Part shown: positions 1 through 21,169 of the stretch, in pieces | How the letters are laid out: each line of letters starts with the position of its first letter | Numbering within the stretch: position 1 is the stretch's first letter | Assembly: GCA_963796275.1 (NCBI GenBank) | Contig: CAWCKY010000004.1 | Location: forward strand, 32,001-96,000 | Reading direction: 5' to 3' | DNA from: an uncultured Acidobacteriota bacterium | GTDB lineage: Bacteria; Acidobacteriota; Blastocatellia; RBC074 | Length of the DNA: 64,000 bases | Notes under the pieces: model-generated | Databases searched by the model: none | What the model was told of the DNA's origin: nothing | What the model saw: the letters and a program-made list of their open reading frames with translations, nothing else | Translations under genes and position numbers: made by a program

Positions 1-1983
1 CGGCGTCTTTTGCAGCACTCGATCATCTGCTTCCAGAGGATATTCTTTTTGCATCCACTCCATGTGGTTCCAGATCGCCCCCTGCGTGATCATCACTCCC
101 TTCGGCTGCCCCGTCGATCCCGAGGTATAGATCACATACGCCAGGTTCTCCTCCGTTACTTCGATTCCCAGGTTCTCTCCATTTTCCTCCTCCAGCCGCA
201 CCCAATCCCGATCTACACAGATCACCTCTTCAACCCATTCCGGGACAGAACCCAATAACTTCTCCTGCGTTAGCACCACCCCCACTCCCGCATCCTGCAC
301 CATGTATCTCAACCGCTCGCTCGGATAGCTCGCATCTAGCGGTAAGTAGGCCCCTCCAGCTTTGAGCACGGCCAGCAGCGCCACCACCAGCTCACACGAT
401 CTCTCCATCTGAACTCCCACTAGCATCTCCGGCCCCACTCCCAATCGCCGCAGCTGTCGCGCCAGACGGTTCGCTCGCTCGTTCAGCTCTCGATAGGTCA
501 GACTCCCAGAACCATCCTCGATCGCCCTCTTTTCCCCGCTTCGCTCGACTTGCTCTTCAAACCATTCGTGCAGCACACGGAACCTTCCCCATTCGACTGC
601 CGTTCGATTCCAATTGATCAGCAATTCTTCGCGTATCCCCGATCCGACCAGTTCCAGCTCTCTCCACTCTTTTTCGGCACTGTTCACTGCGCTCCCGACC
701 ACGCTCAGATATTGTTCGGCGACTCGCTCGATCACGGCTTTCTCGTATCTCGCCCCTTCATACTGCAGCTCAGCGCGGAGCTCTTTCCCTTGCCTTTCAC
801 ACCACAGCTTGATTTTGAAATTCCCTTCTTTCATTCGTCTCCCGCATACTCTCCAGACCAAGCCACGGCTTCGTTCCTCATCTTCAGCTCTAACGTACTC
901 GAATCCGTACTCCAATCCTCTTCGCCACTCCGATTCCTCTCGAATGCTCGCCGCCACTCCTCGGAAGCAGTCTTGCCACGTCCGGTGCTCTTCCAGCCTC
1001 TCGCTCGTTTCATGCACTAGATGGCTCAGACTCGCATTGCTCGCTCCCTCAAATCTCATCGGCAGCCAGCGTTCGAATAATCCAAAAGCTCCTTCCAACT
1101 CGACGTCCGTTCTCCCATCGAACCGCACAACCACTGACTTCAGTCTTCCTCCCGTCAACTTCCACAACAGCACTTGCCAGCAAGCCAGCAGCACTGGTTC
1201 CTCACTCGTTCCCAGGATATCGGAGAGTCTCGCCACACCCGCCGCAAGTTCCTTCCCCAGATTTACTCTCACCGGACTCGATTCCCGCTCACGCTCCCAA
1301 CCTTCTACCTCAAGCGCCAGTCGACCGTTGGCTTCCGCTTCCGTCGATTGGCCTCGCCAATAGGCTCGGCCTTCGGACGCTTCCTCGCTCTCCTCCAGTT
1401 CGCGCTGCCACGCCGCATACGCCGCATATTGCACCACATCTGCTTCAGCCTCTTCCATCTCCTTACATCCTTCACGCAGCCTCTCATACCTCCAGGCCAA
1501 CTCACTCATCAGATTGACCCAGCTCTTGCGATCCACGCTCAATCTTGGCAGGCTGAGCAGCAATCTGGTCTCCTGCCTATCTTGACGCTGCAGACAGGCT
1601 TGTAAGGCTGGTTCGCTGCCGTCCACCGCTCCTTCCTCCATCGTCTCGACCACGCGATCGCCCCACGTCGTATCACCAGTCTCACACGCCTCCCGTTCTT
1701 CTCTCCATCCCAAGGCGCAGGATTCGCTCACCACCTGCCACGGCTGACTCATGCCGGCTGAGAGCCGATACCCGGTCCGCAGAATCTGATGCCTGGCCAC
1801 CGTCTCTTCCAACGCTCTTCGCAGTGCTTCGCTCTCGACCTCACCGGTCAGCACGATCTCGCACAATTCGCGCGGTGTCGGCCCAGCCAGCGCCGACAGT
1901 TCCCTCCACGCTTCCAACTGTTGCTGTGAGATCTGGTAGCCGGTTACCGCCTGCTGTTCTATCAATGTACTTTCATCTCCCAT
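1..1983 (-). CDS. NRPS, 5' part: N-terminal non-catalytic interface/C-like domain + adenylation domain, continues beyond left edge
   Basis: Manual translation from ATG 1983: MGDESTLIEQQAVTGYQISQQQLEAW...ETVARHQILRT; the HHxxxDG position reads LLSLPRLSVDRKSW; A3 motif LAYVIYTSGSTGQPKGV near the edge, in the same frame. Absent from the ORF track because there is no stop in the window. Confidence 0.9.
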   Translation of the reverse strand, partial: MGDESTLIEQQAVTGYQISQQQLEAWRELSALAGPTPRELCEIVLTGEVESEALRRALEETVARHQILRTGYRLSAGMSQPWQVVSESCALGWREEREACETGDTTWGDRVVETMEEGAVDGSEPALQACLQRQDRQETRLLLSLPRLSVDRKSWVNLMSELAWRYERLREGCKEMEEAEADVVQYAAYAAWQRELEESEEASEGRAYWRGQSTEAEANGRLALEVEGWERERESSPVRVNLGKELAAGVARLSDILGTSEEPVLLACWQVLLWKLTGGRLKSVVVRFDGRTDVELEGAFGLFERWLPMRFEGASNASLSHLVHETSERLEEHRTWQDCFRGVAASIREESEWRRGLEYGFEYVRAEDEERSRGLVWRVCGRRMKEGNFKIKLWCERQGKELRAELQYEGARYEKAVIERVAEQYLSVVGSAVNSAEKEWRELELVGSGIREELLINWNRTAVEWGRFRVLHEWFEEQVERSGEKRAIEDGSGSLTYRELNERANRLARQLRRLGVGPEMLVGVQMERSCELVVALLAVLKAGGAYLPLDASYPSERLRYMVQDAGVGVVLTQEKLLGSVPEWVEEVICVDRDWVRLEEENGENLGIEVTEENLAYVIYTSGSTGQPKGVMITQGAIWNHMEWMQKEYPLEADDRVLQKTP

Positions 1984-1984
1984 A

Positions 1985-3049
1985 TCAAATGTCCGTCCTT
2001 TCATATGGTTCGGCCATACCGAAAATGATCTTTCTCTCGCCCCTGAATGACCAGCGTCCGTGCGCGGTCAGCATATTGTCGAGAATGATGACGTCGCCGC
2101 GCTCCCACTCGAAGGCCTTGCTGTTTTCCAGATATGCAGCCCTCAACTCGTCCATGACCGGCGCTTCGATCTCGGATCCGTCCCCGTAGTAGGTATTGTT
2201 GGGCAGATCTTCTACTTTGAACTCCGCGAGCAGAGCATTACGGATCGCAGGTAAGAGCGTCGAAATATGAAAGAATGCCACGTGGTTGAACCAAACCTTT
2301 TCGCCGGTTCGTGGATGCTCAACCACGGCCGGTCGTACCTGGCGAGTGCGCAGACGGTCGCCGTCTCTCCATTCACAATCGATGCCGGCTTGGCGGCAAT
2401 ATCTTTCGACTTCGTCTTTTTCAGTGGTTTGAAAAACCGTCTGCCAGGGCAAGCCAAAGCCATTTCCGAAGTTGCGAACATACATCCATTTCTTTTCGAG
2501 AAAGCGTTCTCTGATCTCCGGAGATATACTCCGGAAAATTTTGCGCGTATCGGCAATCGGCGTCCCCCCTCCCTGCTCGGCCGGAATCAAACAACCGAAG
2601 TAAAGCTTCATCGGCAGAGTTTTGGCATAGGAGTGTTCGTTGTGGGGGAAGATATCTTGCTCCGCGGGATAATCGGTCGAGGTATAGACATTACCGATCA
2701 CGCTGCTGCGAGGAGATGAGCGTTCGCGGTACTCCATCACCTCTCCTGAAATCGCTCGGATCAATTGCTCAAACTCATCCGCCGAATTCATCTGAAAATT
2801 CCGGAGGAGAACGGCGCCACTCCGTCGGCACCAGGTTTCGATGAAGTCCCGGTGGTGCGCGGCCCAGTCAATCAGGCGGACCCCTTCGACGGCAGGCTTA
2901 ACGACCAGCGGGAGTGTGCCGTCGGCATCGAGGTATTCCGTATAAATCAGGCACTCCTCCAGCATGTTGACAGCTTTGGGCTGCGCCATTTTTCCCCGCG
3001 AAGCCCATAAGCTCTGTTTCTCCGGATCCTTCCTTTGTTCAGCACTCAT
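1985..3049 (-). CDS. TauD/TfdA-family Fe(II)/2-oxoglutarate dioxygenase, SyrP-like beta-hydroxylase
   Basis: HNEHSY (HxE) and DNMLTAHGR motifs; HPRTGEKVWFNHV; GGGAGG RBS before ATG 3049; stop abuts the next NRPS start. Confidence 0.9.
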   Translation of the reverse strand: MSAEQRKDPEKQSLWASRGKMAQPKAVNMLEECLIYTEYLDADGTLPLVVKPAVEGVRLIDWAAHHRDFIETWCRRSGAVLLRNFQMNSADEFEQLIRAISGEVMEYRERSSPRSSVIGNVYTSTDYPAEQDIFPHNEHSYAKTLPMKLYFGCLIPAEQGGGTPIADTRKIFRSISPEIRERFLEKKWMYVRNFGNGFGLPWQTVFQTTEKDEVERYCRQAGIDCEWRDGDRLRTRQVRPAVVEHPRTGEKVWFNHVAFFHISTLLPAIRNALLAEFKVEDLPNNTYYGDGSEIEAPVMDELRAAYLENSKAFEWERGDVIILDNMLTAHGRWSFRGERKIIFGMAEPYERTDI

Positions 3050-3172
3050 TGCCATCCCTCCCGTCAAAAAGAGTTCATGATCTGGCTCTCAAGTAGATAC
3101 TCTCCTCGAAATACGTCTCAGCACCACCTAGACGTCAGCCGCTCCCGTCACCCTCAAGTTGGGACGATGGGC

Positions 3173-6100
3173 TTATTTATTTTGTTTCGGGACGTCCGCA
3201 ACTCCTTTGAGCATTTTTCGGCGCGCCGCTGCAAATTTACTTCGATTCTGAAGGCGCTCCTGTCGATCATCCTCTTCGAGGGCAACAAAAAGCTCGTCGA
3301 CCATCACGGCTGAGCGCGCAGCGATTATGTGGAGCAGCGTTTTCAACCTGAGCCCGATCCGCTTAATCGTGGATGCGTCGAAAAGCTCCGTGTTGTAACG
3401 GAACTTGCCGATCATTCCGGCTTCAGCCTCTATCATATAAAGGCTCAGATCGAAGACGGACGTACTGTTATCAAATTCCGCAAGTTGCAGTTTCAAATCC
3501 CCGGCTTCCAGGAACTGCGTTTGCGCATTGCGCAAGCCGAACATCACCTGGAAGAGCGGATTACGGCCCAGATCGCGTTCGGGCCGTAACACTTCCACCA
3601 GTTTGTCAAATGGCAAATCCTGGTGGGCATAAGCGCCGAGAGTTGTCTCTTTGACTTGCCTCAACAGGTCGTCAAAATTCTGCCCCTTCCTGATCCGGAC
3701 ACGTAAGACCAGTTGGTTGACGAACAGTCCGATCAAGGCCTCGCTCTCTAGCCGATTCCGGTTTGCGACGTCCGTGCCGATGAGCAGGTCTTCCTCACTT
3801 GACCAATAACTGAGCAGCACCGCAAAAGACGCCAGCAAAGTCATAAACATTGTGGTTTCTTCCCGGCTGCTCAATGTCTTGATCGCTTCCGTCAGACTAT
3901 GGGAAATATCTAGATAGTAGGCTGCCCCCTTGAAAGACTGCACCAGCGGACGTTGCCGATCGGACGGCAATTCCAGTACGAGCGGCGCATCTGCGAGTTG
4001 CTCCTTCCAGTAAGAGAGCTGCCGGTCGAATACAATGCCGTTCATTTGCTCCCTTTCCCACGCCGCGTAATCGGCAAACTGAATTGAAAGTTCAGGGAGG
4101 GGAGAAGGTCGTTCATGCACGAAAGCTTCATAGAGAGTCGCCAGCTCGCGCACGAAGACTCCAATGGACCACCCATCGGAGATGATGTGAGGCAAGGTTA
4201 CCAGCAACATATGCCGTTCGCCCTCTAAGCGCAGCAATCTGAAACGCGCCAACGGCCCTAGTCTCAGATCAACCGGTTTTCTTGCCTCGGCGATTGCTAG
4301 TTGCTCTGCCATCGCTTCTCGTTCGCTCTCAGGCAACCCGCTCAAATCCTCGATCTGTAAAGTAATGTCCAGAGCCTCATTGATAATCTGGACCGGTCTC
4401 CCATCCTTAAAATCAATGGTCGTACGCAAGGCCTCGTGCCGCCGAATGATTTCGCCGAGACTTTGTTCCAATGGACTAAGATCGAGTTGTCCGATCAGAT
4501 GAATGACACCGGACGAGTTGTATGCCGTACTTCCAGGCGCCAGTTGATCCAAAAACCAGAGACGCTGTTGGGCAAAAGAGAGAGACAAATCCTGATTGCG
4601 GTCGATCGGCGGTATGGGCGAGGTAGCATTCCACGCCATTGCGCCAGCAACCTCAATCTCCTTGGCCAATTCGGCCACGACTGGTTTCTCGAAGAAAGTG
4701 GAGAGGGAGACTTCGATTCGGAATCTTTCGCGCAACCGCGAAACTACTTGCGCTGCTAATAGCGAATGCCCGCCCAATTGGAAGAAGTTGTCGTAGACAC
4801 CGACTCGAGACCCCCCGAGGACTTCTGTGAGAATTTCAACCAGCGCCTTCTCCACTGGAGTCCTCGGGGCGACATAATGATCGTCCGATTCAGAGAATGT
4901 TCGCGTCGCAAGAGGCAGCGCGCGCCGGTCTACTTTCCCACTTGGCGTCATCGGCAATTCGTCAAGTCTGACGAAGGTCGAAGGGATCATGTAATCCGGC
5001 AACCTCTGTTTCAGCGCATCCCGCAATTCATCTATAAGTTCTCCTCCCCAAGCCGATTGTCGCGGCACAACATAAGCAACCAGACGCTTATCGCCGCCGG
5101 ATTCCTCGCGAGCAGCAACCACTGCTGCTTTGATTGCCGGGGAGCTGCACAACGCGGTCTCAATCTCGGCAAGTTCGATACGGAACCCCCTGATCTTGAC
5201 TTGATGATCCATGCGCCCGAGAAATTCGATCTGCTCATCCTCTTGAAAACGGGCAATATCACCGGTCCGATAGAAACGCGCACCCGGCTCTAGGCTGAAG
5301 GGATCCGGCACAAACTTCTCCGCTGTCTGCTCGGTATCGTTAAGATATCCCCGCGCTAGCAGCGGCCCCCCAATGCACAGCTCTCCCCGAGTCCCAAGCG
5401 GCTTCAAATTTCCTTGCCGATCTAAAATATAGATGGCCCGCCCGGCAAGTGGGCGTCCTATCGGGACGCGAGTCACGGAGTCCTGTTCGCCATAATGTGG
5501 AGGTACGTCGAAGAGTGTGGAGGTGATCGTCGTCTCCGTCGGCCCATACGCATTTAATAATCTCGACGACCCCATTGCGCTCTGTAGCCACTGTCGCACA
5601 GTGGCTATGGGCATGGCATCTCCGCCAACAATGATCAGCCTGAGCTGCGTTTCCAATCCGTGCGTCTCAGTAAATTCCCGTGTGAGTACAGTCCAATAAG
5701 CCGGTGGCACATTGGCCACAGTGATACCATATCGTTCCACCTGATGATAAAAATCTGTCGTCTCCCACCGCTGCTCGTCGCGCAGCACCAGCGTCGCCCC
5801 GCTGAAGAGCGTTGCCAGTATCTGCTCGATTGAGACATCGAAACTCAGAGAAGCGAACTGGAGCATGCGATCATTCGACTGTAGTGCAAATGACTCTCCG
5901 ATCCGAGCCAGATGGTTGACCGCTGCTTCGTGAGAGATGCATACGCCTTTAGGGCTGCCGGTCGAACCCGATGTGTAAATAACGTATGCCAGATTCATCC
6001 CGGTAATACACGATTCAAGATTAACCGTGGATTCCTGCGCAATCCCTCCCCAATCTGAATCGAGACAAATGATTTCGGAGGCGACAGCAGAGGCTGGGAG

Positions 6101-7813
6101 ATTGAAGATAAGATGCTGTTCGATTAAGAGCACGGATGGGCCAGTGTCTGTAAGCATATAAGACAATCGCTCTTGCGGAGACTTCGGATCGAGCGGCACA
6201 TATACGCCGCCTGCTTTCAGTATTCCAAGTAGTGAGACCACTGTTGCGATAGAACGATTGGCGCAAACACCGACTGTGACTTCGGGTCCGACCCCCAACC
6301 CACGTAAACGATGTGCGAGTTGATTGGCTCGCTCGTTCAAATCACAATAGCTGATCACTTCATCTCCCAACACTATGGCTATCCTCTCAGGAGCGCGATC
6401 GACTTGGGCTTCGAACATCTCAGACAAGGTACATCTCAAAGGCACGGCGGAGCTGATGGCATCACCGACAGCCAGCAATTGACGTTGCTCCTCCTCGGTC
6501 AACAGCGACAGATTGGAAAGGCGCTGTTCAGATCCAGTAATGACGGTCTCGATCAGGGTCTTCAAATATCCGAGCGTCCGGCCCATAGCTTCCCGCTGAA
6601 AAGTAGAGCCGTCATGAGCAAGGCGTAAGACAAATTGGGGTGACTCCGAAACTTCGAGGACGGTGGGGTAGTCATTTTTTATGTCTACGTGATGGCGGCG
6701 AATTGTTATATCTCTGACAAACCATGGCAAAGGTAGAGTGTGCTCATAGTCATTGAAAGCCAGCGCGCTCTCGAACAAACTTTGATCAGGTTCAACATCG
6801 CTCCAGTCTCGGATTTTTGCCAGCGGGATATGCTCAAATCGGTTGGTCTCAATATATTGATCTTGCAGCCGGTTGAGCCATGAAATCACGGTGGCGCCGG
6901 CTGTGATCTCGACTCGAACCGGTACGAAGTTGCTGAACGCACCAACGGCAAGTTCTCCTCCAGGCCACGAAGATGGACGGTCCGACAAGCATATTCCGAA
7001 GACAATCTCCGTTGAATCAATGTAACGACCGAGGAGTAATGCCCATATACCTGAGAGTATAGTCCTTATGCTCAATTGATGGCGTTGCGCGAAAGCTCTG
7101 AGCGCGGCGCAGGTATTTGTAGAAAGCTCAATCTCTTCTTCTTGGTCTCGGCTGTGGTTGCCTGGTAACGGATGTATGCTCAGCGAGTCCGGTGCACGGA
7201 GCGCTGGCAGCGCATCCGTCCAAAACTCTTTAGCATCAGTTAGTTCTTGCCGTTTCAGCCAGGCAAAATAATCTTTGTATATATAAGTGTGCTTCGATTT
7301 GAATTCCCGCGCATCACATATCGCGTCATAGCATGCAAATAGATCCATCAAGATGATCTGTTGCGACCTTCGATCCAGTAACAATCCGTGATAACTCCAG
7401 ACAAAGTAATGTGTCTTTACAGTCATACGAATGAGATGAACGCGGAGCGGCGGCGATCTTCTCAGATCGAACCTGACCTCGCGCTCCGCTGTCAAAAACT
7501 GCTCCATCCGATGTTCCTGTTCACTTGCAGGCAACGTGCTCCAATCGTACCATTCCAGTGGTATCACCACTTCTCGCAGCACGACTTGTAGCGGTTCATT
7601 TAAATTCTCCCAGGAAAACAGGACGCGCAAAGCCTGATGCTGCCGTAGTATTCGCTGCCAGATCTGCTCGAAAGCGGTAACGTTCAAATCACCATCCAGG
7701 AGATAACTGCAGAGCCGCACGGGTAACGAACCAGGAGATTTCAGTTCGCGGCGCAGAATCTCCTGTTGAATAGGCGTAAGCCTATAGATATCTTCGATAT
7801 TCTCTACTTTCAT
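3173..7813 (-). CDS. NRPS: degenerate C - A - T - C
   Basis: N-terminal DCL-like domain with WSYHGLLLDRRS; A motifs YTSGSTGSPKG, NAYGPTE, YRTGD, SGKVDR; T motif FFQLGGHSL; C-terminal C domain PHIISDGWS. Confidence 0.95.
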   Translation of the reverse strand: MKVENIEDIYRLTPIQQEILRRELKSPGSLPVRLCSYLLDGDLNVTAFEQIWQRILRQHQALRVLFSWENLNEPLQVVLREVVIPLEWYDWSTLPASEQEHRMEQFLTAEREVRFDLRRSPPLRVHLIRMTVKTHYFVWSYHGLLLDRRSQQIILMDLFACYDAICDAREFKSKHTYIYKDYFAWLKRQELTDAKEFWTDALPALRAPDSLSIHPLPGNHSRDQEEEIELSTNTCAALRAFAQRHQLSIRTILSGIWALLLGRYIDSTEIVFGICLSDRPSSWPGGELAVGAFSNFVPVRVEITAGATVISWLNRLQDQYIETNRFEHIPLAKIRDWSDVEPDQSLFESALAFNDYEHTLPLPWFVRDITIRRHHVDIKNDYPTVLEVSESPQFVLRLAHDGSTFQREAMGRTLGYLKTLIETVITGSEQRLSNLSLLTEEEQRQLLAVGDAISSAVPLRCTLSEMFEAQVDRAPERIAIVLGDEVISYCDLNERANQLAHRLRGLGVGPEVTVGVCANRSIATVVSLLGILKAGGVYVPLDPKSPQERLSYMLTDTGPSVLLIEQHLIFNLPASAVASEIICLDSDWGGIAQESTVNLESCITGMNLAYVIYTSGSTGSPKGVCISHEAAVNHLARIGESFALQSNDRMLQFASLSFDVSIEQILATLFSGATLVLRDEQRWETTDFYHQVERYGITVANVPPAYWTVLTREFTETHGLETQLRLIIVGGDAMPIATVRQWLQSAMGSSRLLNAYGPTETTITSTLFDVPPHYGEQDSVTRVPIGRPLAGRAIYILDRQGNLKPLGTRGELCIGGPLLARGYLNDTEQTAEKFVPDPFSLEPGARFYRTGDIARFQEDEQIEFLGRMDHQVKIRGFRIELAEIETALCSSPAIKAAVVAAREESGGDKRLVAYVVPRQSAWGGELIDELRDALKQRLPDYMIPSTFVRLDELPMTPSGKVDRRALPLATRTFSESDDHYVAPRTPVEKALVEILTEVLGGSRVGVYDNFFQLGGHSLLAAQVVSRLRERFRIEVSLSTFFEKPVVAELAKEIEVAGAMAWNATSPIPPIDRNQDLSLSFAQQRLWFLDQLAPGSTAYNSSGVIHLIGQLDLSPLEQSLGEIIRRHEALRTTIDFKDGRPVQIINEALDITLQIEDLSGLPESEREAMAEQLAIAEARKPVDLRLGPLARFRLLRLEGERHMLLVTLPHIISDGWSIGVFVRELATLYEAFVHERPSPLPELSIQFADYAAWEREQMNGIVFDRQLSYWKEQLADAPLVLELPSDRQRPLVQSFKGAAYYLDISHSLTEAIKTLSSREETTMFMTLLASFAVLLSYWSSEEDLLIGTDVANRNRLESEALIGLFVNQLVLRVRIRKGQNFDDLLRQVKETTLGAYAHQDLPFDKLVEVLRPERDLGRNPLFQVMFGLRNAQTQFLEAGDLKLQLAEFDNSTSVFDLSLYMIEAEAGMIGKFRYNTELFDASTIKRIGLRLKTLLHIIAARSAVMVDELFVALEEDDRQERLQNRSKFAAARRKMLKGVADVPKQNK

Positions 7814-7875
7814 CTATTATGTTCCTTACCAAGCTATTCAAAGGTGTTTGCTGGAATGGTCGAGGATATACGAAC

Positions 7876-9492
7876 CTATCTTCCGGAAGCATCGGCTTCG
7901 AGGTAAGTGTCGAATCGCCCAAATAGGCGTTGAGCATCTAGGAATCCTGCTTCACGAGCCTTTTGAATCAGTTTATTGGCCTCTTTAATTTGAATAGATT
8001 CTTCTGACAACCCTAATCCCATGCCGTACTGGAACCACGGCTCACTTCCCATGGCATATATATATACCCGCTTTCCGCCGACCGCCTCGAGCAGCGCCCA
8101 TGCAGCTTTTGCGTTGCTGCCTTTCGTCCGTCTACTAATGTCATGATCGTGTTGAATCCTGGATGGGAGTAATGCCCCATAAAGCCATGAAAGCGGCGCG
8201 CCCACACATTCCATCCCCAAAAAAACAGTTTCAATATCGCCGATCGATCGACGAAGATGTTCGTATAGTCGCCGGTCGAGACAATTAGAGTCAGCCGCGA
8301 ATAAAATGCTCTCCTTTCCAATGCGAATGGCATATGCGCTCTTGCCGTGAGGGAGATCGGCATGCTCTCCTAAAAACGGGACGGCGATGATTTCACCATT
8401 TGGCAGCTCAATCGACTCCAGAGAATCCAACTCGATCACATTTTTAAATCCTATCTGATAGGCCAGCAGTTTCAGCGAAGGATCCGTGTAGAACAGGCTG
8501 AAGTTCTTTGGTACAACCAGGCAGTCGATGCGATGCCGCAAGCGAAGCAGCGTTTCAGGAACAAAGTGATCATGATGGGCGTGTGTAATGAGCGCGAAGT
8601 CAATCTTCTTTGGCAACTCTCGATAGGTGATACGCTCTAATCCGCCGTCTCGAGGCATAACCCCAACCCAGGGATCGGTCATGATAGAGATTCCATTCCA
8701 TTCGACCAAGACACAGGCATGTCCCAGATACCTGATGCGGAGCTTCGGTTCTCGCCACGGTTCAAGTGGCATATTGTGCTCTGACGATAAAAACGGCAGA
8801 AGCGCCTCTTCCTGCCGCTGACCGAGCTCCAGCACTTCGCGAATATGACCCAGAGGTCGCGGCGAGAGCTCAATCCTGAAGAGTTCATCTATCTCCGGGC
8901 TTTCGAATGATACTCGCCAGTCGATTTCATCTTCGTTGAGTAAATGCGGCGTGCTCAGGAAAAAGGGCCGCGAATTATCTCGCTGAACCATAAAAAAACG
9001 CAGTGACTGGAGTATTCTGTTATAGTAAGGGCTTGCGTAAAGCAACCCTTCCATCAGACGTAGAATCGGGTGATTGTAGTAATCGTAGACTAACTCTGTG
9101 TAACCGCGAAGACACTCAGATAATCTCTCATAAAAAGGCTCGAGGCTTTGCCCCTTCGCTTCGTGCGCCAGGCACTCATAAGCTTCGGTGATAGCCTTTG
9201 CCAATTCGAGGTTAGAATACTGGCGTTGCATTGAGCCGAGTAATGCCCGAACCTCATCTGCGCGCTCCAATGGCGCGTCAACAAAAGGTCCACCAACTAG
9301 CCTCGGGTTTTGGCAGGCCTTGATGTGGATCTCTGGATTTTCCATGTAAGACGAGAGAGTCTTGATCTGATAATGCCTCAGATGCATGCTGTAGGGAGCC
9401 GGGGCAATCAAATCCGACCACACGGCCCATTGATTAATTAACGGCTCGACCACAGTTGAATCCGCAAGACGATATGTTGTTTGGGATGACAC
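7876..9492 (-). CDS. MBL-fold non-heme diiron monooxygenase (CmlA/FrsH-type beta-hydroxylase), copy 2
   Basis: About 540 aa; THAHHDH, FLGEHADL, AADS, LGMECVGAP; N-terminal EPLINQWAVW; likely GTG start at 9492 after GAGGAGGAG. Confidence 0.88.
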   Translation of the reverse strand: MSSQTTYRLADSTVVEPLINQWAVWSDLIAPAPYSMHLRHYQIKTLSSYMENPEIHIKACQNPRLVGGPFVDAPLERADEVRALLGSMQRQYSNLELAKAITEAYECLAHEAKGQSLEPFYERLSECLRGYTELVYDYYNHPILRLMEGLLYASPYYNRILQSLRFFMVQRDNSRPFFLSTPHLLNEDEIDWRVSFESPEIDELFRIELSPRPLGHIREVLELGQRQEEALLPFLSSEHNMPLEPWREPKLRIRYLGHACVLVEWNGISIMTDPWVGVMPRDGGLERITYRELPKKIDFALITHAHHDHFVPETLLRLRHRIDCLVVPKNFSLFYTDPSLKLLAYQIGFKNVIELDSLESIELPNGEIIAVPFLGEHADLPHGKSAYAIRIGKESILFAADSNCLDRRLYEHLRRSIGDIETVFLGMECVGAPLSWLYGALLPSRIQHDHDISRRTKGSNAKAAWALLEAVGGKRVYIYAMGSEPWFQYGMGLGLSEESIQIKEANKLIQKAREAGFLDAQRLFGRFDTYLEADASGR

Positions 9493-14400: not shown

Positions 14401-14940
14401 AAGGAAAGCCAGATCACCGCTCGTAAGTTGTGGGCGCGTCCACCGCTCGGTCCATTTAGATCGAGGATCATTAATGATGGTATCTGTGGCCAGCCATAGG
14501 GGTGGCTTCAAGCCCGGAGAGCGTTCGAAGTGTCGCTCGAAACCCGACAAGACTTGAGCTGTGGTCAATGTAGCCATTGCCTCAGTATCTGTGATAATTG
14601 CTTGCAGTCGCGTCAAGTTTCGATTGTGCCGAGGTGGGTACGCCGGAACGGCCACTGCTCCCGCATACAAACAACCGAAGAATGTACTCAGATAATCCAA
14701 TCCTGGAGGATAGAATAGAAGGATGCGCTGTCCGGAAGCTCCCATAGACTGTAGCCAGGCGCCAAGCGCCCGCGCTTGTTGATCCAGTTCCCGGTAAGTC
14801 AGGCACCCGTTTTCTTCTTCTCCTTCAATCAGGAACCTATAGGCAATTCTCTCCGGTTGATGCTCCGCCCTGCGCTGCAGAAGCTCCACCAGTGTCGCCG
14901 CGTTGAATGGCGAGCAATTAACGTCGGTCGAATATTTCAT
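11413..14940 (-). CDS. Lipo-initiation NRPS: fatty acyl-AMP ligase - carrier protein - condensation domain
   Basis: FAAL motifs LAFLQYTSGSTSVPKG, WLPLYHDMGLIG, GYGLAEATL, KTSSGKIQR; carrier FFSLGGDSL; C domain HHIACDGWS. Confidence 0.95.
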   Translation of the reverse strand: MKYSTDVNCSPFNAATLVELLQRRAEHQPERIAYRFLIEGEEENGCLTYRELDQQARALGAWLQSMGASGQRILLFYPPGLDYLSTFFGCLYAGAVAVPAYPPRHNRNLTRLQAIITDTEAMATLTTAQVLSGFERHFERSPGLKPPLWLATDTIINDPRSKWTERWTRPQLTSGDLAFLQYTSGSTSVPKGVMVSHGNLLHNEGVLQEAYEVSEQSVIVCWLPLYHDMGLIGNALQAVYSGASCVFMSPAAFLQRPVRWLQAINRYQATISGGPNFAYDLCVHRITRKERAKLDLSSWKVAFNGSEPIRYDTLERFAKAFEECGFRREGLFSGYGLAEATLAVTASRPSSGPVICQVQKSALEDNRVVLASQNDIGTRTLVSCGKVYGGQRLVIADPQSLIECQEGQVGEIWLSGPSVAHGYWDRPEETERTFNARLTGWDKTRFLRTGDLGFTLEENLYIIGRLKDLIIIRGRNHHPQDIELTAERSDPALRAGCGTAFTIEVDGEEQLVIVQELERSAIRNLDDDEIVWRIYEAIAEEHEIQVHQVVLIKPGSISKTSSGKIQRRATMERFLNGSLDVIRKVDLLEILSSSISRGERTRSRITNRGLAISPSERSLTVLWTKVLGVESIGRHDNFFSLGGDSLLASRLISHLRDILGIDLMFRQLFEHPTIASLSECIDRVKSTRQTQVPPIKPAERGPDLPLSFAQERLWFIEQLEPGNIAYNLPGALLIRGRLNMDALQLTLNEIVRRHESLRTTYTSLAGRPVQVVGKATPVNLHIINLNIELETNRMSVALQQTTIEVRQPFDLSNGPLMRARLLRLDEEEHVLVITIHHIACDGWSMGVLVHELATLYEAFSSKMPSPLPELAIQYGDYSVWQRDWLQGEVLESQLAYWQRQLAGAPLVTKLPFDRAHHGKMGIQGACERFVLPIAITEGLKDLSQREGATLFMTLLAAFQTLLYRYTGQEDLIVGTDVANRNLSETEGLIGFFVNLLPLRIDLSGDPSFRELLGRVREITIDAIAHQHVPFGKVVEALHPERGLTQTPFIQILCVLQNAPIPSLKLGELEVSLLPIDNETAEFELILTMEEIEEGLSCSFKYNVNLFERETIAGMTGKYQRLLESIVNNPDQLLSALQLLTGTESGGLAVSDFPEAELSQRDFENLISNLSGLGRQ

Positions 14941-14950
14941 TCTGCTAGTT

Positions 14951-15739
14951 TTAGACCTGCGCTTCCCGTAGGTTGATGAGGTTTAAGGTTAAACTCATGC
15001 ACGTCAGTCCGGCCTCAGCTTTCTCAAATTCTGAAATGTCGAGTATAGCTACTTGGAAGCCACGTTGTTCCACCAACGCGCGCGTTTGCGGATAACCGGA
15101 GGGAAGCAGCACGATTTTTCCTACAGACAGGGTATTAGCCGCCCATGGCTCCGTGGCAGGCACCTCTATGATCTCTGCCCATTCAAACGGACGAGCATCA
15201 ATCCACGAGCGGTTAAGAAGCACTGTGTTACGGCCCAGGTATGAACACCCTGTTGATAAATGTAAGCACCCATTTACTCTGACAGATCGTACATCGTAAC
15301 CATAGGGCGCCAAGATCATTCGCAACTGTGCAATCCCTTCTGTATTAGTACGACTTGATTCGCCGAGATAGAGGGTGCGGCCGATCCGTATCACATCGCC
15401 GCCTTCCAATGTCGCTGGCGGCTCGAGATATTTCAGAGGGCGGTGCCTCGCCAATACAGGAACTAAGCTATTGATTTCATCTCGCCTCCGCGAAGCCCCC
15501 ATTCGGGCAATGACAGCAAGTTCATCGACCACAACTGCGGTGTCTTCAATGAAAACGGCGTCTGGCAATGCTGGCTCTGGTGGGAGAGAAATTACCTTAA
15601 CTCCATTCTGTTTCAAGAACAGTTCATACGATTGATGTTGTCGAATGGCCTTGGAAATGTCTATCTGGACGCGGTTCAAATAGGTCAATTCACAGTTCCC
15701 GATACTGTGACTGACTTGGCGCGTAAACGCGGTCGGCAT
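14951..15739 (-). CDS. Dimethylargininase (DDAH)/amidinotransferase-superfamily guanidino-modifying enzyme
   Basis: 262 aa; PDAVFIEDTAV, LEGGD, LHLST and C-terminal GLTCMS with the catalytic Cys. Confidence 0.88.
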   Translation of the reverse strand: MPTAFTRQVSHSIGNCELTYLNRVQIDISKAIRQHQSYELFLKQNGVKVISLPPEPALPDAVFIEDTAVVVDELAVIARMGASRRRDEINSLVPVLARHRPLKYLEPPATLEGGDVIRIGRTLYLGESSRTNTEGIAQLRMILAPYGYDVRSVRVNGCLHLSTGCSYLGRNTVLLNRSWIDARPFEWAEIIEVPATEPWAANTLSVGKIVLLPSGYPQTRALVEQRGFQVAILDISEFEKAEAGLTCMSLTLNLINLREAQV

Positions 15740-15847
15740 TTTTCTCCTTCTTCTGTTACTCTCTCTTCGGCTACTTCGGATGACGCAAAACTAACGCTAT
15801 AGTTTAACTTCCCTTCGTTTAAACAATGTTCATACCATATTCAATTG

Positions 15848-17560
15848 TCAGGCTGGGGACAAAATCGGCGGGTTACTATACGTTGCAGATATTTTCTTTT
15901 CTGCTTTCTCTTCCTCTGTAATGAGACGATCTGAGATCAATTGGCCATCCTCAAGCTTAATGAGACGATCAGCTATGTAATAGTAGCGATCATCGTGGCT
16001 GACCACCAACACGGTTTTACCTTTGGATTTCAGCTCTGGCAAAAGTTGTAGATAAAAGACATCCTTGAACTGAGGATCCTGATCTGCAGCCCATTCGTCG
16101 AATATATATATAGGCCGGTCTTCGAGATATGCAGTCAGTAGTGCCAGGCGTTTGCGTTGGCCCTGCGACAACTCAGTGGTCGAAAGCAATCCATTTTTTA
16201 TCTGAACCTTATGGTCAAGTTGAAGCTGGGCTATATATTCGCGAGCCTGTGCATCGAGTCCCGGACGATCAAGCCCATATAGGCCATCAAACAGATAGAA
16301 GTCAGAAAACACGGCAGAGAAATGCTGGCGATAATAATCCCGATTCTGATTGCTTACCGGCTGCCCATCGAAGATTATCTCTCCACTTTCAGGCGCATAA
16401 AGAGCGGAAATCAGTTTAATGAGTGTTGTTTTACCGCTCCCATTACCTCCAGTAATAAAGACTATTTCTCCAGGATTCAATTTCAAATCTATCGGTCCGA
16501 GAGTAAAGTTGCTGTTTTCGCGTTCGCGATGATAAGTGTGAGTGACATTGATAAGGTCTACTTTCTTCCAGGGAAGAGTCGAATTTGCAAGTGGAGGCGC
16601 ATCATTCTCACTTATCTTGGCTGTGAGCAAATTCTCCAATTCACCGAGCTGATCTATTGCGATCTCGGCTTGACTGATTACTGGGTACGTATTAAGCACA
16701 AATTGAAGAGGGTGAATCATATAAAGAATGACGATAACGTATCCAGTGAGCACCTCAGTGGTTGCTCCTTGAAAGTTTGGGAGATTGAAAATTAGCAACC
16801 CAATCACTACAAAAACCAACAACTCTCCCCAATTTTCAGCAATAGCATAATTAGTCGTTGCGGCGATTCGGTCACGGGCAACGGCGGCAGCGGTAGCCTG
16901 TACATTCTGAGAGAAAAATGTTTCCCGGCGCTGGCGATGAAGTTTGAGCTCCTTGCTACCATCGACCAGGGCGTGAAAATGTTTGAGCAATAAAGTCCAA
17001 GAATCACGAGCGAGCATGTAATATTTATCGGCTCTTTGTGCAAGCACAGAGTAACCAAGGCCGCCCAGGGTAAAGATTCCAACTACTGTGAGGAGTAAAA
17101 TCCACGAGAGCCAACCCATATAAACCAGACAACCCAGTACAATCGCTGTGTTTATGCAAAGATTTGGCAGATTAAACAAGGCAGCCACAATTTTCGGAAT
17201 GTCATCGGTCAACGAGGCCATCAACCGGCTGGAGCCAATAGCCTCAAGGTCCCGTAAAGGAGAGGCGAGAATCCCGCGACTTAATTGTATTCGTAAACTG
17301 TACGCTGTCCCTTTGGCGAAGCGCCTGAGAGTAATCTGAAACACTGCCTTGCTGACAGCGAATAATGCACAGGCGGCGAAGAAACTCCACACTGGGGTTG
17401 CGCCAGGGGAGTTGCTTTGTTTCAATGCGCGGCTGGCCAAAGCCAACACAATCGTGTTACTTATCCCGCCCACAATGCCTACCAACATCATAATAACGAT
17501 GAAGCTTTTCGATCGGCTGGTGCTTGTGGAGTGTCGGAGAAAGAATGAAAATAGCTTCAT
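15848..17560 (-). CDS. Cyclic peptide export ABC transporter (SyrD/PvdE/YojI family)
   Basis: N-terminal TM helices; GGNGSGKT, LSQGQRKRLAL, FDEWAADQDP family signature. Confidence 0.95.
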   Translation of the reverse strand: MKLFSFFLRHSTSTSRSKSFIVIMMLVGIVGGISNTIVLALASRALKQSNSPGATPVWSFFAACALFAVSKAVFQITLRRFAKGTAYSLRIQLSRGILASPLRDLEAIGSSRLMASLTDDIPKIVAALFNLPNLCINTAIVLGCLVYMGWLSWILLLTVVGIFTLGGLGYSVLAQRADKYYMLARDSWTLLLKHFHALVDGSKELKLHRQRRETFFSQNVQATAAAVARDRIAATTNYAIAENWGELLVFVVIGLLIFNLPNFQGATTEVLTGYVIVILYMIHPLQFVLNTYPVISQAEIAIDQLGELENLLTAKISENDAPPLANSTLPWKKVDLINVTHTYHRERENSNFTLGPIDLKLNPGEIVFITGGNGSGKTTLIKLISALYAPESGEIIFDGQPVSNQNRDYYRQHFSAVFSDFYLFDGLYGLDRPGLDAQAREYIAQLQLDHKVQIKNGLLSTTELSQGQRKRLALLTAYLEDRPIYIFDEWAADQDPQFKDVFYLQLLPELKSKGKTVLVVSHDDRYYYIADRLIKLEDGQLISDRLITEEEKAEKKISATYSNPPILSPA

Positions 17561-17749
17561 CGATAATAACTCTTGTCAAGTAAAATGAAGAATTTGTATA
17601 AAGCCCGGAAACATGTGGCTCGCAGTCGGGATTACTGCGGTTTCGCAATCATCGCAGTGCATCCGCTGCGAAAGTCCGCACGCGCTCCGTGCGCCGGTTC
17701 TAGGGCTAAACCCTGCTTCGATCGAGGGTTTGATCGTGCCTCTTTTAAT

Positions 17750-17993
17750 GAGGACTGTGCAAATTAAAGTTGATTGTTATTAGTAGTTTCTGGTTGGCTC
17801 CGGGGGAGCCCGATGTTTATAGCTTAGATGATAATGTTCATCGCAAGCTCCAGAGGAGCGACATCTGAACGCCTATATACCGCTCCTCCGGAGCTTGTGA
17901 GGTTTGGATGATCGAGTACTATAAATATTCCGCGCCGCTGGCGCTCGGTACCAAAAACATTGATTCCAATGATCTTTTATTTGCACAGTCCTC
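17750..17993. mobile_element. 244-bp MITE with terminal inverted repeats and 9-bp target duplication, containing REP-like hairpins
   Basis: Ends GAGGACTGTGCAAA / TTTGCACAGTCCTC; TCTTTTAAT at 17741-17749 and 17994-18002; internal GCTCC..GGAGC stems. Confidence 0.85.
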
Positions 17994-18062
17994 TCTTTTA
18001 ATAGGTCATCCGTTGTTTGTTATTCGGATTTTGGTGAGAAAAACGTGTAATTTAACATTACG

Positions 18063-20417
18063 TTAGAATGAATAGGTCTTACTGACATAAGTTGTATCAC
18101 TATAAGGAAACCAGCTAGAAATTAACTCACCAGGCCTTGGGTTGGAGACTAGCTCGTCCAAGGCAGGCAAATCGTAAGAAAGGTCTGTCACCTTTAATTT
18201 GATCGGCAATGACGCTTTGGTAACTAAGACCAAATCCAATCCTGCCTCTGGAAGAGGTAGATATCGTAAGCCCCATTGACCAGCTCCTCCTCCGTTCGCG
18301 GTTTTGCCATTGATTGTGGCGCTTATAACTTCTGCACCATGGTCCAAAAGGATGAAGATTATCGGGGCCTTTCTTGGGGATTTAATATTGAAATGCGAGG
18401 TTTTCACTGTCCCGCTAATGCTCTGACTCACTAAAGATATCTCGGGCACCGCGAGCTCTTTTATTGGAGCTTGAGCGCTTAGAAATGCGGGATAGGTCGA
18501 GGGAATGAAATTATCGAGCGGCCCAAGTTTTACGTGATCAGTTAGGAATCGATTGGTCCAGGCATTTAGTCTATGATCCATAGTTGCCCATATGGCCTTA
18601 CCTGAATCTGCGTTCATGGCATAGAATAGACTGCTCGGTCGCGGATGCTCTCGATCAATACGCGCTGTGAAGATGGCGGCACTAATAAACGCCACGCTCA
18701 AAATCAATGAAATCCATGGCAATAACCAGCGATCCGACATCCTGGTCCGATTCAATGCCTGATCCAAATGCGGAATGAATAACCCCGTAACTAACACCAC
18801 CAATAAAATAATGACCGGAGCCAGTGAGATGCCGAATGCCAATGATATTAGATAAATCATCGGACTCCACAATATGACCCCTGGTAGCGCGCCTGCCAAT
18901 GGAAGAAGCCTATTCTTAAAGAATGCCCCGAATGTATCGCCGATAAACATTCGGCCCCCCAAGGCGACCAAGCTAAACAATAAGGGCCAAACGAACAAAT
19001 AGCTGCCACCCGGTATAAAGATGCTTGTGGCTATCAATGGAAATAACCACCAGAATATTGCCCCCATGGCGAGGTCTAACGTGGATATCTTCTTTTGCCA
19101 GTGGCCATAAAACATGGAGAGAACAGTGAGAACCAAAGCTGCATAACCAATCAAATAATATCCGCTGTTATAAGTATCTCCTTGTGGAAACGCCTTATAG
19201 TCAGGATAGAGCATACCGATTAGCAGCGAAGCAAACGCGACAATAATTGGCGAAATCATCAGCGTCATAAGGAAAATGCCGATTCCTCGCATCAAACCTG
19301 GCCCAGACAGCATCCTTCGCCGAATACCCAGAATCGATAATCCAATATAGAGGGCAGAGACCAGAGCTGCTAAAGGTTTGGCCCAACCGTCAGAGTAATG
19401 GACCAGGCCCCACCCCGGTAGATCGAAATACACCTTGTTGTTATTTGTCGCGGTTTTCGACAGATCCATTGCGCCTAGACGTTTGGAAAGCGCAAGGGCA
19501 TACGCCCCCTGGTGTTGCAAACTGCGTTCGTCAATGTTTTCGAGGCTGTCCAGCATGGTATGGTAATGCGTGTGGCCCGAGATATAGGCGAAATTCAACC
19601 CCGCCCAGCCTGCCCTTTTAAAAACCGAGAAATCTGTGTCGTTTGGTAAAAGCCTATAGATTTCTTGAGAGAGTGAATTAGCAACTGGGTGAGGTGCGGC
19701 CTGCGCCAGTTCATCGATTAGCCAGCCATTTCCATCACTCGTCTCAAACATTATCGCAGGCCCGGAATTGCCGCGTGCCTCAAAGTTTAAAACCACTCCG
19801 ACATTGAAGGCTAACGGATGTTCGGCGACAAAAGCTCTCGCACCAAGCAATCCCGCTTCCTCTCCATCTGTAAACAAAAAGATCACATCATTTTTTAGCG
19901 GCGGACTGTTTCGTAAAGCTCTCAAGGTTTCCAGCATTGCTGCAACCCCGGCTCCATCATCGCTTGCTCCAGGGCTGGACGGAACAGAGTCATAATGGCT
20001 GACCAACACGATCGATTCGCTGTTACCAGTTCCACCTAACATAGCGACGATATTTTCTATCGTAGCAGCCTTAATTAGCCCGCTGCGATCATTACTGGTC
20101 ACCGTGGAATTTTGAATCTGAGGTGATAGCCCAAGACTGGAGAGCTGTTGATATATGTAGTCTCGCACGGCACGATGCTCGGCTGAACCCTGTGGATGAG
20201 GGCGCTTGGCGATCACTCGTAAATGCGCCATTGCCCTTGCCGAGGAAAACTCCCCAATCGGTGCATTGTCTGGCACTGCGTGCGGCGGATCGAGATGTCC
20301 AATTGCTAATCTCCCAATTAGCAAGATCACTGAAATTGATAGGAGAATAGCATAAGAGCTTGTAGCACTCAGTGCGACAACTTGCTCCGACTCTTTCGAT
20401 GTAAATGTATCTGCCAC
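18063..20417 (-). CDS. Membrane-anchored M28-family metallopeptidase with multi-TM region
   Basis: SHYDS, GASDDGAG, TDGEEAGLLG, NFEARG, DTDFSVF, YHT motifs followed by several TM helices. Confidence 0.92.
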   Translation of the reverse strand: MADTFTSKESEQVVALSATSSYAILLSISVILLIGRLAIGHLDPPHAVPDNAPIGEFSSARAMAHLRVIAKRPHPQGSAEHRAVRDYIYQQLSSLGLSPQIQNSTVTSNDRSGLIKAATIENIVAMLGGTGNSESIVLVSHYDSVPSSPGASDDGAGVAAMLETLRALRNSPPLKNDVIFLFTDGEEAGLLGARAFVAEHPLAFNVGVVLNFEARGNSGPAIMFETSDGNGWLIDELAQAAPHPVANSLSQEIYRLLPNDTDFSVFKRAGWAGLNFAYISGHTHYHTMLDSLENIDERSLQHQGAYALALSKRLGAMDLSKTATNNNKVYFDLPGWGLVHYSDGWAKPLAALVSALYIGLSILGIRRRMLSGPGLMRGIGIFLMTLMISPIIVAFASLLIGMLYPDYKAFPQGDTYNSGYYLIGYAALVLTVLSMFYGHWQKKISTLDLAMGAIFWWLFPLIATSIFIPGGSYLFVWPLLFSLVALGGRMFIGDTFGAFFKNRLLPLAGALPGVILWSPMIYLISLAFGISLAPVIILLVVLVTGLFIPHLDQALNRTRMSDRWLLPWISLILSVAFISAAIFTARIDREHPRPSSLFYAMNADSGKAIWATMDHRLNAWTNRFLTDHVKLGPLDNFIPSTYPAFLSAQAPIKELAVPEISLVSQSISGTVKTSHFNIKSPRKAPIIFILLDHGAEVISATINGKTANGGGAGQWGLRYLPLPEAGLDLVLVTKASLPIKLKVTDLSYDLPALDELVSNPRPGELISSWFPYSDTTYVSKTYSF

Positions 20418-20596
20418 TGCAACACTCTTACGAAAGTTATCTCTTCAAGCTGAACTCACAGACCTGAGGTATATCACCTGGATTCTTGAATGGCGATTTG
20501 TTGAAGGAACAGGTTTATGTTTGTGTAGTCGCTACATATCGTTTTTGATTTTACGCCACAAATTTGGTATCAGTTCTCAAGGCAGATACGTCAGAT

Positions 20597-21169
20597 TCAT
20601 GTCCCTCTTAAGAGCCTAGATGTGATATCCAATTTGTCGCTAAGCTTGGTTTCATTTCCATTTGGGTCAGGAACTATTGTTACTACGGTGCCTTCATCAA
20701 GCTGAATTGCTACTGACCTCTGCAGTAAAGTTACGGAGATGACCAACCGCTTCTTATTGTCGTTTTGACATATAGCCCCCTGAACACCGGCTAGAGGACC
20801 TGTCTCTACAAGAACTACCGTTCCATCAGGGAGATAGTTCCATGGCTCTCGTAAGAAATGGCTCCGTGCTAAAAGCTGTAAGGCATCGATCTCTTCTACA
20901 GCTATTTCCGCAGGCTTCCCGCCAAACCCAACTATTCTGGTGACTCCCTTAGTTGCAATTACTTTGCCCATGGCCGAAGGACTGAGGTAGCAGAAAACAT
21001 AGGTAGAGAAAAGTGGCAACTCTATCTCTACTGTACGGTCTGACCATTTTCGCTTCTGCCGGTATGTCGGTGTAAAACACTCATAGCCTTTTTGTCCGAG
21101 CAGATAACTTATTTTCTTTTCATTCCTTGGCATAGTCTGTATAGCAAACCATGACTGCACAGTATTCAT
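20597..21169 (-). CDS. Specialised NusG paralog (UpxY/RfaH/LoaP-like transcription antiterminator)
   Basis: NGN domain WFAIQTMPRNEKK, RKWSDR...PLFSTYVF; KOW motif ETGPLAGVQG; first gene of a long operon. Confidence 0.92.
   Translation of the reverse strand: MNTVQSWFAIQTMPRNEKKISYLLGQKGYECFTPTYRQKRKWSDRTVEIELPLFSTYVFCYLSPSAMGKVIATKGVTRIVGFGGKPAEIAVEEIDALQLLARSHFLREPWNYLPDGTVVLVETGPLAGVQGAICQNDNKKRLVISVTLLQRSVAIQLDEGTVVTIVPDPNGNETKLSDKLDITSRLLRGT

Follow-up and report, generated by a model that had tools for sequence, protein, structure and literature searches.

A nonribosomal peptide synthetase (NRPS) gene cluster occupies positions 1-21169 of a 64,000-nucleotide stretch of contig CAWCKY010000004.1 (assembly GCA_963796275.1, positions 32,001 to 96,000 of the forward strand; hereafter, the window) from an uncultured Acidobacteriota bacterium (Blastocatellia; RBC074). 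The cluster is probably the 5' part of an intact, uncharacterised lipopeptide operon in which hydroxylase genes lie inside split modules, behind a protein that ends in a competent condensation (C) domain and ahead of one that begins with a dead C-like domain. Judged by their sequences, the two dead domains of the window are of different origin. The one in nrps3 belongs with domains found behind TauD-type hydroxylases, whereas the one in nrps2 (hereafter, C*) falls in a separate clade and adjoins genes for CmlA-type diiron hydroxylases. The TauD/interface layout is already known; the CmlA-diiron/dead-C layout is a variant that is undescribed in the literature searched.

Split modules and their hydroxylases

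Inspection of the open reading frames (ORFs) indicated that 1-21169 is one co-directional gene string, entirely on the minus strand and without internal stops. The intergenic gaps are 10-502 bp, except that the TauD gene and nrps3 overlap by 20 bp. The genes listed in the first-pass annotation, which was made from the sequence alone, are all present on that strand with unbroken frames, and its domain reading, with 'dead' N-terminal C domains and an 'interface' (I) domain, was right. The NRPS and hydroxylase genes, with the domains of the former (FAAL, fatty acyl-AMP ligase; A, adenylation; T, carrier; lengths in amino acids, aa), are as follows.

11413-14940, minus strand: nrps1, FAAL-T-C (Pfam)
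13195-14880, minus strand: FAAL-like adenylation domain of nrps1, aa 21-582 (Pfam AMP-binding, 240.8 bits, and AMP-dom_DIP2-like)
12898-13086, minus strand: T domain of nrps1, aa 619-681, GGDSL present (Pfam PP-binding, 58.5 bits)
11512-12831, minus strand: C1, competent C domain of nrps1, HHIACDG (Pfam Condensation, 363 bits)
9624-11216, minus strand: CmlA-type diiron hydroxylase 1, 530 aa (Pfam CmlA_N, 314.1 bits)
7876-9528, minus strand: CmlA-type diiron hydroxylase 2, 550 aa (Pfam CmlA_N, 262.2 bits)
3173-7813, minus strand: nrps2, C*-A-T-C (Pfam)
6473-7795, minus strand: C*, full-length C-like domain of nrps2, aa 7-447, HGLLLDR (Pfam Condensation, 220.7 bits)
4934-6415, minus strand: A domain of nrps2, code DVENIGAITK (Pfam AMP-binding and AMP-binding_C)
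4658-4846, minus strand: T domain of nrps2, GGHSL (Pfam PP-binding, 49.8 bits)
3263-4594, minus strand: C2 of nrps2, PHIISDG, best Condensation stretch aa 1074-1517 (Pfam and motif)
1985-3067, minus strand: stand-alone TauD/TfdA-family Fe(II)/2-oxoglutarate oxygenase (Pfam TauD, 156.8 bits against a cut-off of 27)
1-2004, minus strand: nrps3, I-A, cut by the window edge (Pfam)
622-1851, minus strand: interface-type dead C-like domain of nrps3, PRLSVDR (Pfam Condensation, 126.5 bits)
1-561, minus strand: A domain of nrps3, initial part (the gene continues beyond the window)

The best NCBIfam single-domain models for the FAAL domain are fatty-acid--AMP ligases (450 bits, under the cut-off).

The state of the HHxxxDG motif was read by pairwise mapping of each domain onto C1, plus a family alignment. 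The motif is intact in C1, and C2, which is 47% identical to C1, keeps the catalytic second His. This residue is replaced by Gly in C* and by Arg in the nrps3 domain, and it is also missing from the closest relative of C*, P0126 (HGLLMDE). As a control, the same position was read in the related loci introduced below, where the second His was present in 25 of 25 C domains of ordinary T-C-A context and in 0 of 4 C-like domains of TauD-C-A context. Gene order and motifs therefore bear out the earlier description, in which each hydroxylase gene is flanked by a competent C domain ending one protein and a dead one beginning the next. The N-terminal domains of nrps2 and nrps3 both precede an A domain and adjoin a hydroxylase gene, which is a feature of interface domains. 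The partner of the nrps3 domain is the TauD gene at 1985-3067, whereas the partner genes of C* are of the CmlA type, not TauD. A complex prediction for C* (aa 1-455) with the product of CmlA gene 2 (aa 14-545), run without controls, returned scores of 0.00 and 0.00 and weighs neither way.

A protein database search with the N-terminus of nrps3 recovered the full-length protein from the same contig (P0241, 1867 aa), with the domain order I-A-T-C-TauD. Because nrps3 ends in this fused TauD, which is 45% identical to the stand-alone enzyme, the hydroxylases of the cluster number at least four, and the module that follows nrps3 presumably has the same kind of split. The stand-alone TauD matched PDB entry 1y0z (E = 4.5e-34). 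Its HNE motif and C-terminal His, which we take to be the metal ligands, align with those of this structural relative and of the fused TauD of P0241.

The two CmlA-type proteins are 40% identical to each other, and both combine CmlA_N (PF18456) with a metallo-beta-lactamase fold and read HxHxDH. The second matched the solved structures 8a90 (E = 2.6e-106) and 4jo0, which is CmlA (E = 2.5e-89). Seven of its residues (H316, H318, D320, H321, E388, H389, and D413, gene 2 numbering) show no variation among 50 aligned relatives; some of them are presumably iron ligands. For gene 1, 7621 relatives were found at E ≤ 1e-30 among 8000 scored, the best being 60-79% identical and the named ones being proteins of Pyrinomonadaceae/Acidobacteria metagenome-assembled genomes (MAGs). 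For gene 2, there were 1365 relatives at E ≤ 0.001 and 308 at E ≤ 1e-30 (50%-identity representatives).

Of the 14 50%-cluster representatives closest to CmlA gene 2, 13 have a C-terminal extension. Among 21 long representatives, the region behind the hydroxylase matched Pfam Condensation in eight, A-T in one, a docking domain plus reductase in three, and, weakly, GNAT in one. All five of the full-length C-like tails that were examined lack the second His. The extended CmlA-type representatives P0361-P0377 nearly all have a similar short acidic-aromatic C-terminal tail, consisting of two aromatic residues near the C-terminus after Asp, Glu, or Gln, which may be a docking tag.

Relatives of the split modules and descent of the dead domains

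A genome scan with the hydroxylase alignment, using one genome per species, gave at least 604 pattern matches, at least 563 of which encode a relative (best match 61% identical). The counts below are from the best 80 of these at least 563 loci, which are mostly from Acidobacteriota with a few from other phyla. Their domains were mapped with those of the window as tblastn queries and then by ORF calling. Directly behind the CmlA-type gene, on the same strand, the following were found.

7 of 80 loci: a half C (C-terminal lobe only) and then A, in L001 (with a 288-aa ORF between), L003, L007, L012, L015, L017, and L057
4 of 80 loci: a full C-like domain without the second His and then A, in L011, L021, L062, and L078
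12 of 80 loci: a full C domain keeping the His, L018 included
8 of 80 loci: a free A(-T)
1 of 80 loci: an ABC gene
43 of 80 loci: no mapped domain within 900 bp
5 of 80 loci: the contig end

In 11 of the 80 loci, then, a dead or half C-like piece stands between the CmlA-type gene and A-T. The half C was confirmed by Pfam (model positions 190-456 of 456, ~105 bits). A C domain lies upstream of the CmlA-type gene in six of the seven half-C loci and in two of the four dead-C loci; of five loci with an upstream protein ending in T, four have a live downstream C. Given these counts in relatives, 'C / diiron hydroxylase / non-catalytic C piece-A-T' is a recurrent module type and is not confined to the window. 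The non-catalytic piece is not obligatory, since live C domains stand behind the hydroxylase about as often.

Some of these loci have other arrangements. In L018 (276-3419, plus strand) a CmlA-type hydroxylase is fused to a live C domain (HHIICDG), and the next gene starts with half C-A, the code of which we take to be Tyr-like. In L012 a gene for a B12-binding radical SAM enzyme (4066-5448, plus strand) lies between L012:1-4029 and L012:5809-9864, with a protein ending in a live C before it and a half C-A-T protein, presumably with an Asn-like code, after it. By its domain order, L012 repeats the split-module layout around a tailoring enzyme of a third kind, an arrangement seen at this one locus only. 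In L011 (8658-12993, plus strand), from an Archangium MAG, both C-like domains that flank the CmlA-type gene lack the second His (HQLVTDA upstream, HPIAADA downstream).

The origin of the dead domains was examined in two C-domain phylogenies, one built with FastTree (156 rows) and the other by an IQ-TREE quick search under a mixture model (63 rows picked from those). Both were built without a curated reference interface sequence, so clade membership rests on relatives labelled by their context. Three groups were obtained in both trees: interface-type, the C* clade, and LCL-like. The interface-type clade (15 rows with SH-aLRT 100 in IQ-TREE; 19 rows with support 100 in FastTree) holds the nrps3 domain and every domain behind TauD in the relatives (all four labelled TauD-C-A). 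C* lies outside it, in a separate 20-row clade with support of 100, the members of which mostly read HHxxxDGWS and start with YPLSPxQQGMLFH. We take this clade to be DCL/starter-like. Within it, C* pairs with P0126 (support 95) and groups with the domains of L073, L077, and L078 (support 98 in FastTree, 80 in IQ-TREE). The second His is missing in four of these five domains, and C* and those of L077 and L078 directly follow a CmlA gene. The LCL-like group comprises C1, C2, the CmlA-fused tails, and the dead C of Archangium, with C1 placed among ordinary T-C-A domains. As the dead domains fall in different clades, the adaptor position appears to have been filled from different C lineages.

The region of the nrps3 interface-type domain (592-2004) is rich in Glu (16%) and Arg (11%), as in its three closest homologues (P0242-P0244); other members of the interface-type clade have ~9-11% Glu. 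The G+C skew of the DNA at 1-2000 is -0.36.

The CmlA phylogeny (FastTree) included 79 usable locus proteins and the window's two, with L008 left out because of a stop in the tblastn span. CmlA gene 2 is in a 21-row clade (support 100), in which an NRPS C or T domain is directly adjacent in 17 of the 20 locus members. Its five-row subclade (support 98) includes L068 and L069, two Ca. Angelobacter loci in which the code behind the CmlA2-type gene is identical to that of nrps2. Based on this synteny and the tree, we infer that CmlA gene 2 serves module 1. CmlA gene 1 is in a 23-row clade of mixed context (support 97), nearest to L033 and L048; in L033 and several other CmlA1-type loci, an ABC exporter and/or M28 gene lies beside the hydroxylase. 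By analogy with hypeptin, in which one diiron enzyme (HynC) serves two modules according to the available part of the report (PMC8252469), the target of CmlA gene 1 may be the residue of gene 2 or a later module. The earlier claim of three hydroxylases for the first two modules goes beyond these results, which tie CmlA gene 2 to module 1 by synteny and phylogeny. The clade of CmlA gene 1 is found mostly apart from C domains or beside free A-T, and a fourth hydroxylase is present in the TauD fused to the end of nrps3.

Several characterised systems resemble parts of this layout. In the myxoglucamide pathway of Cystobacterineae, as far as the available text of its report goes, MxgA is FAAL-ACP-C-Ox and MxgB is I-A-PCP, the LCL-type C does the fatty-acyl extension, the tethered residue is beta-hydroxylated in a reaction coupled to condensation, and the second His is missing from the interface domain (PMC13638107). 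The window shares the fatty-acyl start, a competent LCL-type C ending the first protein, a beta-hydroxylase between this C and a dead C-like domain that heads an A-T protein, and, as predicted from sequence, hydroxylation of the tethered first residue. Myxoglucamide has a TauD-type hydroxylase domain built into the first protein and a dead domain of the interface clade, whereas module 1 of the window has two separate CmlA-type genes and a dead domain in another C clade. Module 2, with its stand-alone TauD, is a closer copy of the Mxg layout. The siderophore beta-hydroxylase/interface-domain systems, reportedly described by Reitz et al. in 2019, are alike in that the N-terminal dead C-like domain of nrps3 stands directly behind the TauD gene and that a C-TauD fusion, presumably serving the next module, ends nrps3. 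They differ in that the A code of nrps3 is Gln-like, not Asp/His, and that the window is without iron-uptake genes.

For the diiron enzymes, the accessible portions of two reports state that CmlA, the teicoplanin enzyme, FrsH, and HynC act on carrier-tethered residues (PMC7794379, PMC8252469). The window's enzymes share with CmlA, FrsH, and HynC the CmlA_N and metallo-beta-lactamase fold, the HxHxDH motif, and the predicted action on tethered amino acids, and the cluster, like that of hypeptin, combines diiron and TauD hydroxylases. In these portions, the descriptions of CmlA, FrsH, and HynC include no extra dead C-like domain in the partner module, whereas in the window and the 11 loci a dead or half C-like domain heads the partner module, and close relatives of CmlA gene 2 are fused to one. 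The cyanochelin CyanoBH enzymes were considered as a diiron precedent and ruled out, being Fe/2-oxoglutarate enzymes. No paper that pairs an interface, dead, or truncated C domain with a CmlA or diiron enzyme was found in our search, which most subscription papers lie outside, so that the pairing may have been published elsewhere, and no characterised nonribosomal lipopeptide from Acidobacteriota turned up in a limited literature listing.

Proposed pathway and its alternatives

Substrate codes of ten residues were read from an alignment of all A domains, at positions taken from GrsA numbering. The residue names given to the codes of relatives (Asp, Asn, Tyr, His, Val, Thr, Gly, Pro, and Leu) are presumed assignments. 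The nrps2 code is neither the Asp-like nor the His-like code of the relatives; its Glu at position 239 presumably hints at a basic or polar long side chain. The register of the codes is validated by the published Gln (DAWQFGLIDK) and Ser (DVWHFSLVDK) codes, both of which appear verbatim among the relatives (PMC8313283). The nrps3 code, DAWQYGLIDK, is one letter off this Gln code.

An N-acylated, multiply beta-hydroxylated nonribosomal peptide, as proposed in the first-pass annotation, is the natural product class for this gene set. In the pathway that we consider probable, the FAAL would adenylate a fatty acid and load it onto the first carrier domain, and the A domain of nrps2 would load residue 1 onto its own carrier. 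A CmlA-type enzyme, with the product of gene 2 as the best candidate, would beta-hydroxylate the tethered residue 1, which C1 would then N-acylate. C* would do no chemistry and would instead be an adaptor that holds the split module together and maybe positions the hydroxylase. The Gln-like residue 2 would be loaded by nrps3, beta-hydroxylated by the stand-alone TauD beside the interface-type domain, and joined to the chain by C2. Residue 3 is very probably hydroxylated likewise, nrps3 ending in C-TauD. Export of the product would fall to the TIGR01194-type ABC pump, perhaps followed by extracytoplasmic processing by the membrane M28 peptidase. A guanidino or ureido residue may be provided or altered by the DDAH-like enzyme, and the NusG paralog would help RNA polymerase to traverse the long operon.

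Several points weigh against this pathway. Of the 23 loci in which a C-like piece directly follows the CmlA-type gene, 12 have a live C, and the 43 loci noted above lack an NRPS domain in the 900 bp behind that gene on its strand. L068 and L069 share the module-1 code, but their C after the CmlA-type gene is live and a dead C is absent; because these loci use a live C, a dead one is not required for this hydroxylase-substrate pair. The nrps2 code had no match to any code in the literature search, and to the left of the window the cluster is known from nrps3 alone. Among the known systems, the available text on myxoglucamide describes the MxgB interface domain as dispensable for coupled hydroxylation and acylation in vitro (PMC13638107), and FrsH and HynC work, in the excerpts available, with CAT or AT constructs without an extra C-like domain (PMC7794379, PMC8252469).

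The findings for MxgB, FrsH, and HynC also favour a possible, though doubtful, alternative in which the dead and half C pieces serve only for docking, bringing together a module that is divided between C and A, and do not help to recruit or position the hydroxylase, which would recognise the carrier or the A domain directly. Such an explanation fits the half C domains that stand behind a C without an intervening tailoring gene (L007 at 15823; L049 at 20686), as well as those behind the B12-radical SAM gene of L012 and a fused TauD in L001. On the other side, glidomide, unlike MxgB, needs its interface domain for hydroxylation, as told in the accessible part of the myxoglucamide report (PMC13638107). 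CmlA-type enzymes are, moreover, fused to C-like tails (8 of 21 long representatives, with the His missing in five of five tails), and such a fusion of CmlA with a dead C makes the re-joining of a module alone a poor explanation.

A second alternative concerns the product, which could be an acylated beta-hydroxy-amino-acid peptide siderophore of the cupriachelin, cyanochelin, or pyoverdine-precursor type, with PvdE-like export and deacylation outside the cytoplasm. We regard this as unlikely. The FAAL start of the cluster and the TIGR01194-type (PvdE family) exporter would fit it, the TauD plus interface layout is siderophore-associated in antiSMASH 8 and metallophore mining (PMC12230676, PMC12971057), and cyanochelin C combines a FAAL start, a C-TauD / next-module layout, and a maturation acylase in the portion of its preprint available (bioRxiv 10.64898/2026.07.24.740629). 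Against it, no TonB-receptor domain or other uptake or chelator gene was found in the 43 window ORFs (Pfam; six rescanned at E ≤ 0.1), and the 64 kb contain 0 Fur-box matches at ≤3 mismatches, which is weak evidence as the consensus is that of E. coli and may not apply to the phylum. The A domain behind TauD and I is moreover Gln-like, not Asp/His. This appears to be a real difference, since relatives from the same phylum (L007, L017, and L059) do carry I-A modules that we take to be Asp-coded. The earlier remark that a siderophore role is unsupported without a TonB receptor or Fur box is reinforced by the Pfam and Fur scans and by the Gln-like code, and a classical beta-hydroxy-Asp siderophore is not supported by these sequences.

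It is most improbable that a module works in trans, with C1 acylating a CmlA1-hydroxylated residue on a free A-T and C* joining it to the nrps2 residue: the two diiron genes with a single A-T between them and the next C, and the CmlA1-type genes directly before a free A(-T) in 8 of the 80 loci, would agree with it, but C* and its closest relative P0126 lack the catalytic His and the window has no free A-T gene.

Accessory genes, flanking regions, and wider meaning

The remaining genes of the operon precede nrps1.

20597-21169, minus strand: NusG paralog (UpxY/LoaP-like antiterminator), the first operon gene
18063-20417, minus strand: M28 peptidase, 784 aa, with the M28 domain at aa 122-309 and then a long hydrophobic region
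15848-17560, minus strand: ABC exporter, fused permease and ATPase (NCBIfam TIGR01194)
14951-15739, minus strand: DDAH/arginine-deiminase-superfamily enzyme, 262 aa, 10 bp upstream of nrps1

The NusG-like gene was unnamed in the first-pass annotation. It matched Pfam NusG (60.9 bits) and the NCBIfam UpxY-family antiterminator (103 bits against a cut-off of 100), with 51.6 bits to the LoaP model (under its cut-off of 125). Its place at the head of the operon suggests processive antitermination of a long biosynthetic transcript. NusG-like matches were also seen near CmlA-type genes in L064, L070, and L075. The exporter matched the TIGR01194 model for cyclic peptide export ABC transporters (501.3 bits against 286.2) and the peptidase matched Pfam Peptidase_M28 (168.7 bits), with M28-like genes also found near CmlA1-type genes in L033, L066, and L073. 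A TIGR01194-like exporter and/or membrane M28 homologue stands beside CmlA1-type genes in L025, L028, L033, L045, L049, L066, L067, and L073, which suggests a conserved hydroxylase-exporter-peptidase cassette in Acidobacteriota clusters. The DDAH-like enzyme (Pfam ADI, 43.3 bits; DDAH_eukar, 40.2 bits) is under the NCBIfam dimethylargininase equivalog cut-offs (200.3 vs 340 and 189.1 vs 450) and is, by these scores, a superfamily member only; its homologue was not found in any of the 80 related loci.

The G+C content of the cluster (0.47-0.52 at 6001-22000) is 4-12 points lower than that of its flanks (0.55-0.61), which is compatible with horizontal acquisition or NRPS codon bias. A scan of 2500-22000 for promoters and terminators was uninformative, as fewer sites were found than in shuffled sequence (12 vs 20.5 promoter-like; 15 vs 17.9 terminator-like). 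Directly upstream of the operon (21651-29963, minus strand) are genes for an FHA-GAF-sigma-54 activator, a DUF4384 protein, a Ser/Thr kinase, and a 1193-aa TPR-CHAT protein; these genes may regulate the cluster. The flanks also encode a MacB-like permease, and no flank gene bears on the product. Mobile-element genes occur in the right half of the window, namely an IS605 OrfB-type gene (42924-43772, minus strand), an IS21-type pair (Mu-transposase-like and IstB; 56347-58261, plus strand), and a Tc3-like transposase fragment (59780-60298, minus strand), as do large ORFs with weak RHS-repeat matches (50369-53249 and 60814-63999, both plus strand).

For NRPS engineering it matters how a trans-acting hydroxylase is directed to the module that it serves, a question still without an answer, and the authors of the FR900359 study, in the part of it available, were still investigating the interaction between hydroxylase and module (PMC7794379). 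The CmlA-diiron/dead-C layout is backed by its recurrence in relatives and by the fusions of hydroxylases with dead C domains, and an adaptor function is proposed for the non-catalytic C-like pieces. We tentatively extend it to a general, repeatedly evolved adaptor for trans-acting tailoring enzymes. Such an adaptor would be a full-length domain whose catalytic His is gone, the C-terminal lobe by itself, or an enzyme-fused tail, and its partners would come from at least three enzyme families that are not related (TauD-type, CmlA-type diiron, and B12-radical SAM). In the window, consecutive modules would hold two independent versions, that of module 1 being drawn from a DCL/starter-like clade for diiron hydroxylases. 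One tethered residue may also be hydroxylated twice, by the two diiron enzymes.

The cluster is a candidate for a new, heavily hydroxylated lipopeptide. If dead or half C-like pieces are the address label for CmlA-type as well as TauD-type enzymes, the hydroxylated residue would be predictable from sequence, the hydroxylation step would be portable between assembly lines, and a large set of Acidobacteriota clusters would become easier to read, given the at least 563 genomic relatives, the best 80 of which are mostly from this phylum.

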